This document shows positions 6,099 to 54,836 of a DNA stretch of 64,000 nt, in pieces. Within the stretch, counting starts at the first letter, position 1. Every line of letters begins with the position of its first letter. The notes under the pieces were generated by a model. That model was given only the letters and a program-made list of their open reading frames with translations. It ran no database searches and was not told where the DNA came from. The stretch is from Patescibacteria group bacterium. GTDB lineage: Bacteria; Patescibacteriota; Minisyncoccia; Phycocordibacterales; WO2-35-19. Both the position numbers and the translations under genes were made by a program. The stretch covers positions 21,154-85,153 of the forward strand of contig JBBTSI010000003.1 of the NCBI GenBank assembly GCA_038064735.1, in the 5' to 3' direction.

Positions 6099-6191
6099 AC
6101 CATAGACTATATCACATATAGTCTATGGTCTAAATAAAAAATGTGGATAAGTTTTTCAAAAAGATTTTATCAAAAAATATAAGATAGGGTT

Positions 6192-16426: not shown

Positions 16427-17656
16427 TCAAAGAGACATAACTTCGTCTGTCCATTTGTAAATATTGCCAGCACCCATGAGAACAACACAAAGAAGTTTTT
16501 GTGGATTCATTTTTTGTAAAAAATTTTTAAGTTCTTGTGGATTTTCTACAGATTGGGAAGGTTTGGTTTTATTTATAGCTTCGGCGAGGACTTTATTGTT
16601 GGTGGTGCCGTCATCTGTTTCTCTGGTGATTAGGATTGGAGCAATAAAAATTTCATCGGCGATTTTTAAAGCATTCACAAAATCATCAAAAAGCAGTTTC
16701 GTTCGACTTTGTTGATGAGGTTCAAAAACACAAACTATTTTTCGGTCAGGATACTTTTCATGCAGAGTATTGAGGGAGGCTGAGATTTCGGTTGGGTGAT
16801 GAGCATAATCATCATAAAAAATATTTCCATCTTTTTCTCCCTTATATTCAAGTCGTCGCCAAGTGCCTCGAAAATCTTTTAAAAATTCTTTGGATTTTTC
16901 TTGGGGTATGCCCAACAGTTCGGCAGTTTTTATAGCCGCTTGAGCGTCCAAAATATTATGTTCTCCAGAAACAAGTAAGACAAAATCTATTTTTACTTTT
17001 TTATAATCATCTTCTTTTACCACAAACCCATCTTTCGGCACTTTTTGTTCCAATTCTTTGAAAGCACTTTTTATATCATCAAGGTCTTTATAATAATCTA
17101 AATGGTCGGCTTCAATGTTTGTAATTACCAAAATAGTAGGGGATAAGTTTAAAAAAGAGCGTTTGTATTCACAAGCTTCTACTACCAAATATTTGCTTTT
17201 GCCGGCAATAAAATTGGAGTTTTTACCGAGTATTTTTGAACCAACGATAACAGTTGGGTCCAGTCCGGCTTTTTGCATAATATGACCAATCATAGCTGTA
17301 GTGGTGGTTTTGCCATGAGTGCCGGAGATGGCGATGGTAAACATCTCCTTAGAAAGTTCACCAAGTGCTTGTGGGTAAGATACACAAAACAAACCTCTTT
17401 TTTGGGCTTCTAAAATTTCAGGATTGTCTTCCTTTATGGCGATGCTATATATTACTACTTCCACATCTTTTTCCAGATTTTCCGCTCTTTGTCCGATGAA
17501 AATTTTGATTCCCAATTTTTCCAAATCATCGGTTATTTCTGATTGATTGCTGTCTGATCCGGTGACTATTTTACCTTTTAAAGAAAGCATTCTAGCAATA
17601 GCGGAAACTCCTATGCCGCCGATACCAACGAAATGATATTTTTTTTGATTAAACAT
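16427..17656 (-). CDS. murC: UDP-N-acetylmuramate--L-alanine ligase
   Basis: HFVGIGGIGVSAIA N-terminus, GTHGKTTTT P-loop, Mur ligase middle and C-terminal domains. Confidence 0.85.
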   Translation of the reverse strand: MFNQKKYHFVGIGGIGVSAIARMLSLKGKIVTGSDSNQSEITDDLEKLGIKIFIGQRAENLEKDVEVVIYSIAIKEDNPEILEAQKRGLFCVSYPQALGELSKEMFTIAISGTHGKTTTTAMIGHIMQKAGLDPTVIVGSKILGKNSNFIAGKSKYLVVEACEYKRSFLNLSPTILVITNIEADHLDYYKDLDDIKSAFKELEQKVPKDGFVVKEDDYKKVKIDFVLLVSGEHNILDAQAAIKTAELLGIPQEKSKEFLKDFRGTWRRLEYKGEKDGNIFYDDYAHHPTEISASLNTLHEKYPDRKIVCVFEPHQQSRTKLLFDDFVNALKIADEIFIAPILITRETDDGTTNNKVLAEAINKTKPSQSVENPQELKNFLQKMNPQKLLCVVLMGAGNIYKWTDEVMSL

Positions 17657-17720
17657 GTTTATTTGAACGCTTTTCCACAGTTATATTTAATTAATATATC
17701 ACATATGATATGCTTTAGTC

Positions 17721-19238
17721 ATGGGAAAAGTGGATAATCAAATAATTATTGGCAGTTTTATAAAAAAATTAAGAGAAAAGCGTTCTCTGACTCAAGATGA
17801 GCTGACTCAAAGACTTAATACTTCTCAAAGTGCGGTGGCTCGTATTGAAAATGGTGGCCAAAATTTAACCGCTGGCGAACTTCTTAAAATCGGCGATGCT
17901 CTGGAACATAAAATAGTCTCTCTTTCCGATTCTATCGATTTCAAAATTTCCGGTGGTAAAAAACTTAAAGGAAGTATAAAGACAAACTTTTCTAAAAATG
18001 GAGCCATGGGGCTTTTGTGTGCTTCTCTTTTAAATCAAAATACAACTATTCTTCACGGTATACCGAGGATTGAAGAGGTGAGTAGAATGCTCGAAATATT
18101 TTCCGCTCTGGGAGTCAAATACAGATGGCTTAAAAAGCAGTCTTTGGAAATTAATCCTCCTAAAAATTTTAATAAAAACGGTCTGCTTCATTCTTCGGTT
18201 GCCAATGTCAGGTCAAGCCTTATGCTCATACCGGCCATGGTTCATCATTTCAAAAATTTCTCGTTGCTTCACTCTGGGGGTTGCAAGATGGGTGAGAGGA
18301 CTATATCAGCTCATCGTTTTGCTTTTGAAGATTTAGGTATTTCTATTAAAACTATGAATGATAGATACGGTATCTCTTCTGGATCTTTGAAAACAGCCGA
18401 TGTTGTCATGTATGAAGCTAGTGATACGGCTACCGAAAATGCCATAATGATAGCCGCTTTGATTCCTGGGAAAACGATAATACGATTTGCTCCGCCAAAT
18501 TATCAGGTACAGGAAGTTTGTTTTTTCTTGGAAAAATTGGGTGTAAAAATAGAAGGCATAGGTACTACTGATTTGATTGTTCATGGAATAAAAAAAATAA
18601 ACCAGAAGATTGAATATTATAATAGTGAAGACCCAATCGAATCGATGATGTTTTTGAGTGCTGCAATAGCAACAAATTCAAAACTGAAAATAGAAAGGTG
18701 CCCAATAGATTTTTTGCGTCTCGAATTAACCAAATTGAAAGCTATGGGTCTCATGTATAGTCTTTCAAAAGAATATCCAGCTCAAAATGGGAAAACTAAA
18801 CTGGTAGATATAACAGTGTTTCCTTCCAAATTAAAAGCTTTACGTGATAAAATCCATGCCCAGCCTTATCCGGGTATAAACTCAGACAATCTGCCATTTT
18901 TTGTACCAGTAGCTACCTTAGCTGAAGGGACGACCCTTATTCATGATTGGATGTGGGAGAATCGGGCTATATATTTTACTGAGCTCAATCGTTTAGGGGC
19001 TAATATTACTTTAGCCGATCCTCACCGAGTTTTTATAACTGGTCCGACCAAATTGAAACCTGCTCAAGTGGTTTGTCCGCCAGCTTTGCGCCCAGCTATG
19101 ATTATCCTTATCGCGATGCTTGCGGCTCCTGGTGTTTCTATATTGAGGAATGTTTATTCCATAAATCGTGGTTATGAAGATGTGGTTCAAAGATTGAATA
19201 GTATAGGTGCTTCAATAGAAAAAATCACAGGAGCTTGA
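17721..19238 (+). CDS. murA: XRE-family HTH domain fused to UDP-N-acetylglucosamine 1-carboxyvinyltransferase (MurA)
   Basis: Residues 1-70 have an XRE HTH (LTQDELTQRLNTSQSAVARIENG); the remainder aligns to MurA end to end, including the catalytic-loop Cys (SGGCKMGERTISAHR vs E. coli PGGCTIGARPVDLH) and C-terminal NRGYEDVVQRLNSIGASIE. Confidence 0.8.
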   Translation: MGKVDNQIIIGSFIKKLREKRSLTQDELTQRLNTSQSAVARIENGGQNLTAGELLKIGDALEHKIVSLSDSIDFKISGGKKLKGSIKTNFSKNGAMGLLCASLLNQNTTILHGIPRIEEVSRMLEIFSALGVKYRWLKKQSLEINPPKNFNKNGLLHSSVANVRSSLMLIPAMVHHFKNFSLLHSGGCKMGERTISAHRFAFEDLGISIKTMNDRYGISSGSLKTADVVMYEASDTATENAIMIAALIPGKTIIRFAPPNYQVQEVCFFLEKLGVKIEGIGTTDLIVHGIKKINQKIEYYNSEDPIESMMFLSAAIATNSKLKIERCPIDFLRLELTKLKAMGLMYSLSKEYPAQNGKTKLVDITVFPSKLKALRDKIHAQPYPGINSDNLPFFVPVATLAEGTTLIHDWMWENRAIYFTELNRLGANITLADPHRVFITGPTKLKPAQVVCPPALRPAMIILIAMLAAPGVSILRNVYSINRGYEDVVQRLNSIGASIEKITGA

Positions 19239-19280: not shown

Positions 19281-19448
19281 CTATGAAAACCACAAAAGAT
19301 TTTGATCTTAAGGTTATAGATTATTTTAACACTACAAAACAGCTTCATCCTGAAGTCTGTGATTTGGATTCTGGTACCATTAGTGAACTTATTGATGCCA
19401 TACCAAAAGGAAATCAAGAACTCGTTTGTTTGTTAACAGGACTTTTGT
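19281..19448 (+). CDS. small ORF (55 aa) with strong RBS, possibly the frame-shifted N-terminus of the VanX-like gene
   Basis: GGAGGG then ATG at 19281; MKTTKDFDLKVIDYFNTTKQLHPEV...; ends in a different frame 20 nt inside the VanX-like ORF. Confidence 0.3.
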
Positions 19449-20196
19449 AGAAAGGAGGTATGCAGTGATTCATGAGTTTATGAGTCGTCCTATACCGGAT
19501 CTGTCTCGTTTGCGGTCAGAAAAATCTGCATACCGAAACTATCCGATTTGTCCTATTTCTGAAAAATGTCTGAAAGTAAATAGCGGAATGTTGTGCCGAA
19601 GTTACTATTGGGATTATAAACCAAGGCCAGCTGGAGCAATAGAAGAGATTTTTTTGAGAAAGTCTTTTATTGCTAAATTAAAAGCTATTGATGAAGAACT
19701 TAATTCATTGGGGTTGAGACTTCTAATACAAGAGGGCTATAGACCACTTTTAGTTCAGCGTTTTGTTCAGGAAGTTTCTGTTTTGAAGGGTTTGAGAAAA
19801 GAAAATCCTAATCTCGGGGAAGCAGAACTTTTTGAGAAATTAAAAATGTTTGCTGCTTCAGCAGATATGGATTTACAACTTTCTCCACCACCTCATTTAA
19901 CAGGGGGTGTTGCTGATGTTAATCTAGTTTATTTGGAGACCGGGAAAGTTGTAGATATGGGTAAAAGAGGAGGTTTGTATAATACGGCTTTTCCTGATGC
20001 TTTGGAAAATTATAATTTCAAAACGATGGAACAACCAAAAAGATTCAGAAGGCTTCTTTTTTGGTTAGCTTTTGAACAAGGTATAACTACCAATCCTACG
20101 GAATGGTGGCATATTTCTTGGGGAGATCAAATGTGGGCGTGGATAACTAAATCATCATGCGCTATGTATGGTGCCGCCGATGATTTATTATCTTAA
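19426..20196 (+). CDS. D-alanyl-D-alanine dipeptidase (VanX/DdpX-like, peptidase M15D)
   Basis: GYRP, HLTGGVADVN (HxxGxAxD zinc motif) and EWWHISWGD (EWWH); start uncertain (19426 or later ATG). Confidence 0.7.
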   Translation: MFVNRTFVERRYAVIHEFMSRPIPDLSRLRSEKSAYRNYPICPISEKCLKVNSGMLCRSYYWDYKPRPAGAIEEIFLRKSFIAKLKAIDEELNSLGLRLLIQEGYRPLLVQRFVQEVSVLKGLRKENPNLGEAELFEKLKMFAASADMDLQLSPPPHLTGGVADVNLVYLETGKVVDMGKRGGLYNTAFPDALENYNFKTMEQPKRFRRLLFWLAFEQGITTNPTEWWHISWGDQMWAWITKSSCAMYGAADDLLS

Positions 20197-20232: not shown

Positions 20233-20265
20233 TTGGGATATTTTTTAATGTATTATAAGAATAAA

Positions 20266-21606
20266 ATGGAACTGAAAAATAAAAAAGTATTACTTATGGG
20301 ACTGGGGATATTGGGTGGTGGGGTGGCCACTGCTCGCTGGCTTGTAGAGCAGGGGGCAATTTTGACAGTTACTGATATGAAAAATGAAGAAATTCTCAAA
20401 CCTTCTCTGGAAAAGCTGAAAGATTTGGAAGGTAAAGCAAGGTTTGTATTAGGCCGCCACGAAGAAAAAGATTTTTTAGATAACGATATTATTGTTGTTA
20501 ATCCTGATGTCCCGGCTGATAATAAATTTGTAGAATTGGCGAGAAAAGCCGGAAAACAAATTGAGAACGAGCTTACACTCTTTTTCTCTCATTTGAAGAG
20601 TAAGAATGTCGTGGCTATTACCGGCACACGGGGCAAAACTACTACTACTAATTGGACTGCTCATTTTTTAAAAATGCATAATGTCGACACTTTTTTAGTC
20701 GGCAATTCCCCGGAAAAGCCTTTTTTGCAGGAAATTAAAAATATAAATGAAAATAGTTTGGTTGTATTGGAAGTTCCTTCTTATCATTTGGAAATCGTGA
20801 ACGGAAAAAATTTTAAACCTCATGTGGCAGTTATTACCAACCTTTATCGAGATCACATCAATCGTCATAAAACTATGGAAGAATACGCTTCTGCCAAAGC
20901 CAATATATTCAAAGGCCAAAATGAAGATGATTTTTTGATTTTGAATAAAGAAAATGAATGGACAGATTTTTTCTTTGGTCTCAAACCAAAATCACAAGTG
21001 ATTTTTTATGATGTGCAGGATAATTTTTCTCCTGAAGAAACAGAGGAGTTTTTAAAAAAATGGGGCGAACATAATTTACTCAATTTATTTGCTTCTGCCT
21101 CAGCCGCTCTGGCTATGGGGGTATCTGTTGAAGAAATTAAAACTCACATCAGTACTTTGCCTCAAATAAAATTCAGACAAGAAAAGGTTTTTGAAAATGA
21201 AAATTTAGCTATTTTTAACGATACCACCGCTACTTCACCTGAAGCCTCCATGGCAGCAATGGAGAGATTTGCGACAATGAATGAAAATTTGATTTTTATC
21301 GCTGGTGGTACAGATCGTGACCTTGAATTTAAGAAATGGGCGGAAGTTGTAGAAAAAAATATAAAACCCGAACAACTTATATTATTGTCTGGTAGTGCCA
21401 CCGAAAAAATGAAAAAAGAATTAGGTTGGGATAGTTTTAATGAGTTTGAAACCCTAAAAGAGTGCTTAAATAAAGCTTTGGAAATCGCTAAAGGGCAGGA
21501 TAAATCCAATATTGTTTTTTCACCTGGAGCCAAAAGTTTTGAAAAATTCAAAAACGAATTTGATAGGGGAGAGAAATTCAATCTTTTGGTTAAAGAAACG
21601 CTTTAA
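20266..21606 (+). CDS. murD: UDP-N-acetylmuramoylalanine--D-glutamate ligase
   Basis: N-terminal Rossmann fold (KKVLLMGLGILGGGVA), GTRGKTTTT P-loop, Mur ligase domains; start at MELKNKK chosen by alignment (TTG at 20233 and ATG at 20248 are alternatives). Confidence 0.8.
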   Translation: MELKNKKVLLMGLGILGGGVATARWLVEQGAILTVTDMKNEEILKPSLEKLKDLEGKARFVLGRHEEKDFLDNDIIVVNPDVPADNKFVELARKAGKQIENELTLFFSHLKSKNVVAITGTRGKTTTTNWTAHFLKMHNVDTFLVGNSPEKPFLQEIKNINENSLVVLEVPSYHLEIVNGKNFKPHVAVITNLYRDHINRHKTMEEYASAKANIFKGQNEDDFLILNKENEWTDFFFGLKPKSQVIFYDVQDNFSPEETEEFLKKWGEHNLLNLFASASAALAMGVSVEEIKTHISTLPQIKFRQEKVFENENLAIFNDTTATSPEASMAAMERFATMNENLIFIAGGTDRDLEFKKWAEVVEKNIKPEQLILLSGSATEKMKKELGWDSFNEFETLKECLNKALEIAKGQDKSNIVFSPGAKSFEKFKNEFDRGEKFNLLVKETL

Positions 21607-52931: not shown

Positions 52932-54836
52932 TTAGAGTAGATTATCCGGATCAACTTTAACATCAAAATGAGGGGGCAAGGATTTCAAAATTGAGAGCAG
53001 GGAAGAGTCAGGCCAATCTTTCCTTGGAAGTTTAATGACAGCGTTTACAGCTGCTTGTTCACCTCTTTTTTCGTGAGTGGAGGGGAAAACAGTGGCTCCT
53101 TTATCTGTGAGAATATTTTTTAAATTTTCTGCTTCCCTGTTGACGAAATTTTTGGTACCTCGTACCGTGATTTTTATGAAAATACCAAATGGCGGATAAC
53201 CTAAAACTTGTCGGTCTTCAATTTCTTTTTTATAAAATTCCACTAAGTTTCCAGTGATGCCAAATTCTACAGTGGAATCTTCCGGATTTCTGGTTTGAAT
53301 TATAAAATTTTCTTTGGCAATACTTTTAGTTTGTAAAATCAAACGGAATATTTTTTCTCGAATGCGGAAATCGGGGATGGAAAACAGAGAATCAAAAGAA
53401 CATATAGCGGAACTACCAACTTTTTTATATAAGTAAGGAAAAGCCATTTCGGTGCCCAAAAGTATACTACCTTTGTTTTCGTAAAAACTTTTAGAAACAC
53501 TTGTTGCTTGGACACTGGTTTCCGTAGCATCTTTATGAATTTCAAAAAGATTTATATTAGGGATTTCTTTTCTTATCTCTTCCGCTACTCGGTCAATGCC
53601 GGCGCCAAAAGCTGCCAATTTCCAACTGCCACAATTTTGGCAGATTTCAGCTGCATCACGAGTCTCACCACATTGATGACATTTGAAAGCTCCACCTGTT
53701 TTGGTTTTGTACAAAATCACTGGTGCAAAACAATTAGAACACTTGACTTGTTCACCGCAATCTCGGCACACAGTAACAGAAGAAATGCCTTTTCTAGCGG
53801 CAAAAATAAACATGTTGGAACTTTTTTCAATTACTTCTTTTATGAGTTTCAAAAGTTCCGGAGAAATGGTTTTAAATTCTCCTCCTTTTTCTTTCTTGGT
53901 GTTTTCTTTTAAGTTCACTACTGAAGTTTTAATTTCGCTAGGTAACCGCCATTTTACGTTTTCAAATTCCGAAATTTCTCCTTGTTTGTATCTGTACAAA
54001 GTTTCTGTCCGGAGGAAAGAATCACCGATAACCAAACGGATGTTGTTTGCTTTTGTTAAAGCTTCCATGAAAAATCTTAAATCTATGAAAGGTTTAGCTA
54101 GAGTTTTCCAACCACCTTCATTTTCTTTGTCCATAATGATGGTACCAAAATCATTCCTTGGTAAAAATAACCACTGAGAAGTGCTAATAATAAATACAGG
54201 ATGCTCTGTTTGGCAGGCTTTTTTCCATTCTTTAACCAAATCTTTTTTATTCATTTCATTATGAAAGACGCAAACGAATGATTCTATACCACGCTCCAAT
54301 TTATCTTTAGCTCGCCTCACATCTTCATTTTGGGGTAAGCACAAAAAAACGGATTTCTTTTTAGCAAATTCTTCTCTGACGAGCAGTCGATAAAGATCCA
54401 TCCTTTCTTCATTTGGAGCTTGTAGGATAGAGACTTCATTTTTTGTACCGGAAGTATTTTTTGGAAGTTGCTTTTTAGATGATATTTTCGATATGGTTTC
54501 CGGATTTTCCAAAACGAAAGAGGGAATTAAGTGAGGAAGTATATTACCCAAATTAGCCGAAAAGTATTTAGCCGTCACTTTAACTGCTTCCAAAAATTCT
54601 TTTTGCAAAAAAGGTTTTGATGTAAAAGCGGAAATTTTTTTTAATTGAAAATTTGCTGATTTTATTTCCGTTTTCATTTCGGTCACATCTCGACTTTTTG
54701 TGACCAAGGCCGGTACGCTTTTGTTTCTTATATTTATTTTGATGAGAGAGCCGGGCTCTAAATATTTTGGCCCAAAATAAGATAGGGACTCTTTATTCAG
54801 ACCTTTTGAAAATGGTAAACAATCTATTATGAACAT
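52932..54836 (-). CDS. priA: primosomal protein N' (PriA)-like replication restart protein
   Basis: Cys-rich zinc ribbon CRDCGEQVKCSNC...CHQCGE...CQNCGS typical of the PriA helicase C-lobe; Walker motifs degenerate. Confidence 0.55.
   Translation of the reverse strand: MFIIDCLPFSKGLNKESLSYFGPKYLEPGSLIKINIRNKSVPALVTKSRDVTEMKTEIKSANFQLKKISAFTSKPFLQKEFLEAVKVTAKYFSANLGNILPHLIPSFVLENPETISKISSKKQLPKNTSGTKNEVSILQAPNEERMDLYRLLVREEFAKKKSVFLCLPQNEDVRRAKDKLERGIESFVCVFHNEMNKKDLVKEWKKACQTEHPVFIISTSQWLFLPRNDFGTIIMDKENEGGWKTLAKPFIDLRFFMEALTKANNIRLVIGDSFLRTETLYRYKQGEISEFENVKWRLPSEIKTSVVNLKENTKKEKGGEFKTISPELLKLIKEVIEKSSNMFIFAARKGISSVTVCRDCGEQVKCSNCFAPVILYKTKTGGAFKCHQCGETRDAAEICQNCGSWKLAAFGAGIDRVAEEIRKEIPNINLFEIHKDATETSVQATSVSKSFYENKGSILLGTEMAFPYLYKKVGSSAICSFDSLFSIPDFRIREKIFRLILQTKSIAKENFIIQTRNPEDSTVEFGITGNLVEFYKKEIEDRQVLGYPPFGIFIKITVRGTKNFVNREAENLKNILTDKGATVFPSTHEKRGEQAAVNAVIKLPRKDWPDSSLLSILKSLPPHFDVKVDPDNLL

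Follow-up and report, generated by a model that had tools for sequence, protein, structure and literature searches.

What is a helix-turn-helix (HTH) DNA-binding domain doing at the N-terminus of MurA? This enzyme (UDP-GlcNAc 1-carboxyvinyltransferase) catalyzes the committed, fosfomycin-targeted step of peptidoglycan synthesis, and what is known of the control of its level comes mostly from Firmicutes, where the mechanisms are post-translational. To our knowledge, gene regulation has been almost unstudied in the Patescibacteria (candidate phyla radiation, CPR), which are mostly uncultivated, ultra-small and equipped with few transcription factors. The question was raised by one gene in a 64,000-nucleotide stretch of contig JBBTSI010000003.1 (positions 21,154 to 85,153) of the Patescibacteria group bacterium assembly GCA_038064735.1; this whole stretch is called the window here, and positions are those of the window. 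A first-pass annotation had described an XRE-type HTH fused to a full-length MurA with its catalytic-loop cysteine, and had proposed either feedback regulation of the mur genes encoded around it or a moonlighting DNA-binding function. We confirmed this fusion and examined what lies in front of it in related genomes. The evidence favors a reading that we hold to be probable, in which HTH-MurA, as a trigger enzyme, has two functions: it is an active MurA and would also bind its own operator as a dimer, thereby repressing murA, murB and murC.

Judging from its sequence, the fusion protein is a single polypeptide that joins a DNA-binding domain to a catalytically competent enzyme domain. Its one open reading frame (ORF) matched Pfam HTH_3 (PF01381) at residues 14-61, with 39 bits against a cut-off of 23, and Pfam EPSP_synthase (PF00275) at residues 77-492, with 156 bits over profile positions 2-417 of 417, while the NCBIfam MurA subfamily model NF006873 matched residues 74-502 with 316 bits, above its cut-off of 297. 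The best solved-structure matches of the protein were all MurA chains, covering residues 74-504 with E values down to 6e-52; for the fused HTH, the relatives in the Protein Data Bank (PDB) were C proteins, HipB and phage repressors, the closest at E of about 1e-3 to 1e-4. An AlphaFold2 (AF2) model built from a 43-sequence alignment had a mean predicted local distance difference test score (pLDDT) of 90.4 and consisted of two confident domains with a low-confidence linker at residues 66-70. The first of these was a four-helix HTH (helices 6-20, 25-32, 36-43 and 51-60) in which the helix 2-turn-helix 3 unit was present, and the second had a confidently predicted MurA fold. No in-frame ATG, GTG or TTG was found near the HTH/MurA junction in the window's ORF, and the MurA part therefore cannot start separately. 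A protein identical to that of the window (P0001) is present in NCBI/ENA, where it is annotated only as MurA.

The enzyme part retained nearly all of the residues expected of a working MurA. Cys188, in the catalytic loop GGCKMGER, aligned with E. coli Cys115, the target of fosfomycin, and window residues K92, C188, R193, D389 and R483 correspond to E. coli Lys22, Cys115, Arg120, Asp305 and Arg397. The equivalents of K22, N23, R91, D305, R331, R371 and R397 were invariant in 78 aligned fusion proteins, and those of C115 and R120 were kept in 77 of the 78, the remaining one having a gap. The residue numbers are those of E. coli MurA, and the resulting alignment agreed with the PDB alignments. 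Additionally, the presence of murB, murC and murD near the gene supports a MurA role. By its score below the strict equivalog model TIGR01072, the domain is a divergent, Patescibacteria-type MurA.

We scanned GTDB with one genome per species, which yielded 112 relatives, and kept 80 loci for locus comparisons. In 79 of the 80, one in-frame tblastn segment ran across both domains, from query residues 1-23 to about residue 500, at 49-85% identity, and both Pfam domains were present in 114 of the best 120 homologues (66-87% identity). The carriers were Zambryskibacteria, Nomurabacteria, Jorgensenbacteria, Paceibacterota and Minisyncoccia, which belong to the Parcubacteria/Paceibacteria part of the Patescibacteria. 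A search of 1.84 billion representatives at 50% identity with query residues 1-130 gave about 100 clusters with a match spanning the junction, many of them fragments and without taxonomy. The fusion is real and old. Its two parts were conserved to a similar degree, with a mean top-residue frequency of 0.68 in the HTH vs 0.75 in MurA and a dN of 0.12 vs 0.13, dN being the only informative rate since dS was saturated and left 7 of 91 pairs usable. These values argue for strong purifying selection on the fused HTH, at a constraint similar to that on the enzyme. Some homologues of 440 residues have no HTH. Three of these (P0071, P0074 and P0079) are real secondary losses, and genes of this HTH-less kind, 80-85% identical, resemble ordinary MurA genes; another candidate, P0080, was rejected as a contig-end truncation of a fusion.

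A candidate for the DNA sequence that this domain recognizes first emerged when the regions in front of the gene were aligned across the 80 loci. A palindrome search of the 160 nt before the fusion gene with the pattern ATATCA-N4-TGATAT found the motif at 69 of the 80 loci, 46 times perfectly and 23 times with one mismatch. Three of the 11 remaining loci had no upstream DNA at all, and several had symmetric variants (ATAGCA...TGCTAT or ATCTCA...TGAGAT). Comparable matches occurred only 11 times in the remaining 553 kb of locus sequence and not at all in shuffled sequence. All 18 positions of the palindrome were near-invariant among species whose proteins are only 55-65% identical, with position 9 varying only between A and G, and the modal spacing from the 16-bp core to the ATG was 9 nt. 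The window conformed to this pattern: its palindrome was the sole perfect match to ATATCA-N4-TGATAT in 64 kb and the top match to a position weight matrix (PWM), at 26.1 bits, with a core separated by 9 nt from the murA ATG and by 40 nt from the start codon of the divergent murC, within a murC/HTH-murA intergenic region of 64 bp. The wider gene neighborhood differed greatly among loci, and the full palindrome was retained in 10 of the 14 loci whose upstream gene is co-directional. Since it is kept across varied neighborhoods and without a divergent partner, the palindrome follows HTH-murA itself. A palindrome conserved in 69 of 80 genomes lends comparative support to the idea that the mur genes around the fusion are under feedback regulation, and a moonlighting function unrelated to these genes is not needed.

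The palindrome was also associated with a particular recognition helix. The palindrome-bearing loci all shared the helix T[ST]QS[AT][VI]AR[IM]E-x-G-x-QN, and three fusions without the palindrome had unrelated helices (L069, IEPEMLVKME; L076, VETHVLALIE; L080, IDTSLLTEIE). Upstream of these three, each a single sequence, we found no convincing alternative palindrome. Presence of the palindrome thus tracks the recognition helix, as would be expected if it were the cognate operator of the fused HTH.

Furthermore, the same palindrome was found with the same kind of HTH outside murA loci. An unbiased scan of a metagenome collection for the exact 18-mer, which gives independent support, returned 126 sites in 120 loci; 23 of the sites adjoin HTH-MurA and/or MurB. 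A hidden Markov model made from the fused HTH had 42 matches in the 692 kb of these loci, and 40 of the 42 lay within 1.2 kb downstream of a site and were transcribed away from it. Their distances from the site fell into two classes, fusions at 27-65 nt and operons of a Gp49 toxin and an XRE antitoxin at about 460-510 nt. In the latter, Pfam identified a Gp49-family (HigB-like) toxin followed by the XRE antitoxin (16 toxin ORFs), and the 18-mer formed the spacer of a TTGACA-17/18-TATAAT promoter, which is a classic operator position. One antitoxin HTH, with the helix TTQSNIARMEAGQQN, was 39% identical to the MurA HTH over 57 residues. The common denominator of the HTH-bearing palindrome loci is one XRE HTH subfamily, whatever gene lies downstream. 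This Gp49/XRE operator, apparently shared widely, seems undescribed so far, and such a toxin-antitoxin module is the likely source of the MurA HTH/operator pair, which most likely would have been recruited jointly. Neither the window nor any of the 80 loci has a Gp49-like ORF beside HTH-murA; the neighbors are mur genes, and HTH-MurA is therefore not a toxin-antitoxin system. Toxin-antitoxin operons with the exact TATATCATATATGATATA spacer include those at L086, L094, L099, L106, L107, L110, L128 and L130, among others.

How might binding to this site affect transcription? The right half-site plus two bases reads TATG-A-TATAnT, and the left half is its mirror image. Such a sequence fits the extended -10 type of Gram-positive promoter, including its TRTG "-16" motif. 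No Shine-Dalgarno sequence was present in the 9 nt before the murA ATG, which together with the 9-nt spacing points to a transcript that starts at or next to the ATG, and we infer that the murA transcript is leaderless. We propose that the C-terminal 430 residues act as an active MurA at the first committed step of peptidoglycan synthesis, and that the N-terminal XRE HTH, on its flexible linker, would bind TATATCATATATGATATA, probably as a dimer. The palindrome would overlap the extended -10 elements of back-to-back promoters, one for murA and one for murB (murC in the window), so that a dimer on it would occlude the two -10 elements and thereby close the divergent promoters on either side. 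Negative autoregulation would then set the MurA level, with co-repression of the neighboring genes of the UDP-MurNAc pathway. DNA binding, dimerization, and repression rather than activation are what we infer; what the sequences show is the fusion and its wide conservation, the conserved palindrome with its positions, its co-occurrence with the recognition helix, and the intact catalytic residues.

The identity of the divergent partner differed between the window and its relatives. The upstream neighbor was divergent in 58 of the 72 loci with usable upstream sequence, across intergenic regions of about 20-80 bp, and among ten such neighbors tested, nine were murB and the tenth was priA-like. 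The ancestral divergent partner is murB, not murC. The first-pass annotation had correctly placed murC divergently upstream, and in the window murC does share the palindrome, but murB holds that place in most relatives. No murB is present in the 64-kb window. Rearrangement is likely to have brought murC under a former murB promoter, as the comparison of these loci suggests. Window positions 17657-17694 resemble the 5' end of relatives' murB (ATAACTGTGGAAAAGCG vs ATGATTGTGGATAGAGAA in L004), with the ATG mutated. A PriA-like gene, recognized by reading its sequence and without a Pfam match, lies at 52932-54836 on the minus strand of the window, and in a different Paceibacteria clade (L033, L044-L047, L058 and L066) this priA-like homologue, not murB, is the divergent partner that shares the palindrome. 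In many relatives murD directly follows murA, and at L004 and L020 murC follows murB on the divergent arm.

We next asked how far the predicted regulon extends, scanning all loci with the PWM at a threshold of 14 bits. Besides the sites before HTH-murA, only 13 further sites were found. Seven were located directly at the start of a murC that does not adjoin murA (L006, L008, L010, L011, L012, L013 and L014), and three were located 4-5 nt past the murA stop codon (L001, L007 and L009). The window has a weaker site in the same position as these three, 2 nt past the murA stop and ahead of a small ORF, a dipeptidase gene and murD. A shared palindromic operator was thus found at murA and murC, as the first-pass annotation had anticipated, but none lies directly before murD in the window, where the weaker site instead precedes the block of small ORF, dipeptidase gene and murD. 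Two other window matches were discarded: one with 2 mismatches at 20989, inside murD, is at chance level, and a weak PWM match at 6106 (5.8 bits), whose neighbors are not cell-wall genes, was treated as chance. Across the clade, murA, murB, murC and murD all appear to stand behind palindrome-bearing promoters, and the predicted operators front genes of the enzyme's own pathway. In some genomes the extra sites would extend the regulon to murC and to the genes that follow murA.

At one metagenome locus (L145, 2169-2186), a perfect palindrome lies 9 nt 5' of glmS (MCGIIGYIG..., 611 residues), a spacing like that at murA, and a divergent 345-residue ORF there has sequence similarity to the glmS product. 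UDP-GlcNAc supply, through glmS, may belong to the regulon of some genomes.

Several observations weigh against the proposal of a trigger enzyme that represses the mur genes. Nearly every conserved half-site position fits a TRTGnTATAnT extended -10 element, and promoter function alone could therefore explain part of the conservation. Two loci that have lost the HTH still carry the palindrome (L081 intact, L083 with one mismatch), which can therefore persist without a cis-encoded HTH. In the metagenome collection, 86 of the 126 sites have no nearby HTH; several of these lie at contig ends, and they probably reflect either chance occurrence in AT-rich DNA or truncation at contig ends, an AT-rich 18-mer being presumed, by our own estimate, to occur by chance roughly a hundred times in such a collection. 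In the enzyme part, the equivalent of Asp369 is replaced in all 78 aligned fusions (Pro in 71, Leu in 5, Ala in 1 and Gly in 1; motif PPALRP), and the strict equivalog model TIGR01072 was not passed (309.9 bits vs a cut-off of 392.7). Finally, we know of no dimerization of MurA in solution.

The strongest rival explanation builds on the first of these points and takes the palindrome to be only a compact, symmetrical bidirectional promoter, which the fused HTH does not bind, having some other role or none. Each half-site reads TRTG-n-TATAnT, with the A/G variation at position 9 as the R of TRTG; a promoter-like match on the minus strand uses the left half; divergent upstream genes across very short intergenic regions are the rule (58 of 72 loci); and the HTH-less L081 and L083 retain the palindrome. 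However, in about 620 kb of these genomes, a sample of hundreds of promoters, the 18-mer occurs at none but those of mur genes, and the "n" after the TG is A in 94%, a preference that promoter function does not require. Its retention in 10 of 14 loci without a divergent partner is likewise unexpected of a bidirectional promoter, as is its place in the -35/-10 spacer of the toxin-antitoxin operons, always with an HTH of the fused-HTH subfamily. The palindrome moreover tracks the recognition helix of an HTH under strong purifying selection, and one of the HTH-less lineages, L084, has lost it. We therefore consider a promoter-only explanation unlikely.

The kinship with toxin-antitoxin modules also allows a different assignment of the binding protein, in which the main ligand of the operator is a free-standing XRE protein (e.g., a Gp49/XRE antitoxin) and the MurA HTH competes with it or localizes MurA to DNA. 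Stand-alone XRE antitoxins with a very similar recognition helix do occur behind an identical 18-mer, and a trans-acting protein of this type would fit the persistence of the palindrome in HTH-less MurA lineages. The 64-kb window, however, contains neither such a toxin-antitoxin module nor a second strong site, site and fused HTH co-occur in about 70 species in any neighborhood, and the covariation of helix and operator concerns the fused HTH itself. This assignment seems to us quite improbable, and less well supported than binding by HTH-MurA, although cross-talk with free XRE proteins could occur alongside repression by HTH-MurA.

A third explanation turns to the enzyme part, which might be a ligand-sensing pseudoenzyme within a pure regulator, with MurA activity supplied by another gene. 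The score below the TIGR01072 cut-off and the replacement of Asp369 in every aligned fusion agree with it. Yet the other catalytic residues listed above are invariant apart from one gap at C115 and R120, the subfamily model NF006873 was passed, the gene is the sole MurA-like gene at each locus and sits with murB, murC and murD, and its HTH-less versions look like ordinary MurA. This explanation is again less well supported than that of an active enzyme, and we regard it as very unlikely. That the fusion is an artefact of assembly, frameshift or gene calling, or of an overlooked alternative start, has next to no probability and was rejected, since the frame is uninterrupted in 79 of 80 independent genomes as well as in over 100 protein clusters of separate projects, and no alternative start codon lies near the junction. 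This refutes the frameshift or single-assembly error against which the first-pass annotation had guarded.

If HTH-MurA is indeed a DNA-binding trigger enzyme, its active site may be what it senses. MurA binds UDP-MurNAc tightly in a distinct half-open conformation, the "dormant complex" (PMC9975281). Because of this complex and of the precedent of BirA, NadR, PutA and RbkR, we speculate that occupancy of MurA by substrate or product (UDP-GlcNAc, or UDP-MurNAc in the dormant complex) alters DNA binding. A tentative extension, which we regard as possible but doubtful, is that HTH-MurA is a metabolite-sensing autorepressor in which the state of the active site (open, UDP-GlcNAc-closed, or UDP-MurNAc/PEP "dormant") gates dimerization or the HTH, so that flux at the committed step would directly set transcription of murA, murB, murC and murD, and possibly glmS, from an operator derived from a toxin-antitoxin module at which free XRE antitoxins could cross-regulate.

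The features of the window that bear on this proposal are collected in Table 1. The neighbors reported in the first-pass annotation were right in kind and direction, but murD is not adjacent to the fusion gene, as a 55-residue ORF and an M15 dipeptidase-like gene lie between them; rpmG and then tRNA-Trp follow murD. For the dipeptidase, the TTG start at 19426 given by the ORF listing is probably wrong, and a GTG at 19465 comes after AGGAGG. A frameshift in this vanX-like gene was considered and rejected, as L004 shows an identical layout of small ORF and dipeptidase gene. At L008 and L010, a dipeptidase-like gene is divergent from murC, behind a second palindrome.

Table 1. Positions of the fusion gene, its parts, its predicted control elements and its neighbors in the window
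Feature	Position	Strand	Basis or remark
HTH-MurA fusion gene	17721..19238	+	ATG start, one ORF, 505 aa
XRE/Cro-C1 type HTH domain	17748..17915 (aa 10-65)	+	Pfam; AF2 helices
Recognition helix TSQSAVARIEN	17820-17852 (aa 34-44)	+	Inside HTH domain
Inter-domain linker, short, flexible, about 10 residues	17916..17936 (aa 66-72)	+	AF2 pLDDT <50 at aa 66-70
MurA (UDP-GlcNAc 1-carboxyvinyltransferase) domain	17940..19226 (aa 74-502)	+	Pfam, NCBIfam, PDB matches
Catalytic Cys188 codon	18282-18284	+	GGCKMGER loop
Operator candidate, 18-bp palindrome T-ATATCA-CATA-TGATAT-G (consensus TATATCATATATGATATA)	17695..17712		Inverted repeat confirmed
Predicted extended -10 of HTH-murA, TG-a-TATGCT	17706..17714	+	Sequence and modal 9-nt spacing; overlaps right operator half
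Promoter-like -10 hexamer TATATT preceded by TG, facing murC	17693..17698	-	Consensus scan match; overlaps left half
Second, weaker operator-like site TGTATAGCATATATGTGATAAA	19240..19261		13.7 bits, window's second-best PWM match
murC	16427..17656	-	Pfam Mur_ligase, Mur_ligase_M, Mur_ligase_C; divergent from HTH-murA
Conserved 55-aa ORF	19283-19450	+	Downstream of HTH-murA, likely co-regulated; L004 counterpart 61 aa
M15 D-Ala-D-Ala dipeptidase-like (VanX-like) gene	19465-20196	+	Pfam; probable GTG start; likely co-regulated
murD	20233-21606	+	Pfam; downstream, likely co-regulated

Two further sets of observations concern the same upstream regions. The DnaA-box consensus TTATCCACA, counted as perfect copies, was about 80-fold enriched in the 150 nt 5' of HTH-murA, always in the plus orientation (15 copies in 11.4 kb vs 9 in 555 kb). 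The boxes lie about -52 from the ATG at L003, L005, L013 and L014, and at 17671-17679 in the window (TTTTCCACA), while those at L063, L070, L072-L075 and L078 lie at about -72 and/or -14; one clade has two copies, with the palindrome between them. In a Zambryskibacteria-like clade the box overlaps the first murB codons (M-I-V-D-K), where coding constraint may explain it. The window has four perfect DnaA boxes elsewhere, at least two of which (6142 and 56650) are intergenic. At L081, a close relative without the HTH (positions 1-190, encoding P0079), the HTH codons have been lost precisely, an intact palindrome lies 4 nt 5' of the new ATG, and the tail of a gene that reads like a transposase/integrase C-terminus is located directly upstream, in the place of murB. 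L083 is similar, with one palindrome mismatch and a divergent upstream gene.

We found no description of this fusion, its regulation or its operator sequence in the searchable literature, and we put HTH-MurA forward as the first candidate for a trigger enzyme, one with a defined operator, that acts at the committed step of peptidoglycan synthesis. A whole class of Patescibacteria appears to have put a regulator inside an enzyme. The prediction is of a precise operator, a small regulon of murA, murB, murC and genes downstream, and a simple promoter geometry, all of which in vitro assays or E. coli reporters could test without cultivation. If the proposal is true, peptidoglycan synthesis would join the short list of trigger-enzyme pathways, and an antitoxin-type HTH and its operator would be documented as co-opted for housekeeping control. 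Free XRE antitoxins that share the recognition helix could, in that case, cross-regulate cell-wall synthesis in these reduced-genome epibionts.

Among known systems, the closest in function are BirA (biotin ligase/repressor), NadR, PutA and the archaeal RbkR, enzymes that control their own pathways through a fused DNA-binding domain (PMC5397151). As in these proteins, an N-terminal DNA-binding domain is fused to a metabolic enzyme, a palindromic operator fronts genes of its own pathway, and the enzyme domain is a natural sensor of the state of that pathway. Unlike them, HTH-MurA belongs to peptidoglycan precursor synthesis rather than to the metabolism of vitamins, cofactors or amino acids, and it uses an HTH of the XRE/Cro type in place of a winged helix or ribbon-helix-helix (RHH) domain; ligand control of its DNA binding is speculative.

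In the descent of its DNA-binding part, HTH-MurA resembles the Gp49(HigB-like)/HigA-like type II antitoxins, with which it shares a homologous HTH, the helix Q-S-x-[VI]-A-R-[IM]-E-x-G-x-Q-N and an identical 18-bp palindrome in the promoter. It differs from these modules in having no adjoining toxin gene, in an HTH that is joined to a 430-residue enzyme instead of the short toxin-neutralizing segment of XRE antitoxins, and in an operator that overlaps a bidirectional mur promoter. Among solved structures, restriction-modification C proteins and HipB come closest to the fused HTH. These are dimeric XRE proteins that act on palindromic operators overlapping their own promoters. In contrast to HTH-MurA, they are small and stand-alone, lack an enzyme domain and have a dimer interface of their own.

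With canonical MurA, finally, HTH-MurA shares the fold, nearly all catalytic residues and control at the committed step, and it differs in its built-in transcription-factor domain and in the replacement of Asp369. The known controls of canonical MurA (PMC9975281; PMC12077105) are UDP-MurNAc feedback, ClpCP proteolysis with ReoM/IreB, and PASTA-kinase signaling in Firmicutes, all of them post-translational. HTH-MurA would thus resemble the trigger enzymes in function, while its DNA-binding part, by its apparent descent, belongs with the XRE antitoxins and autorepressors.

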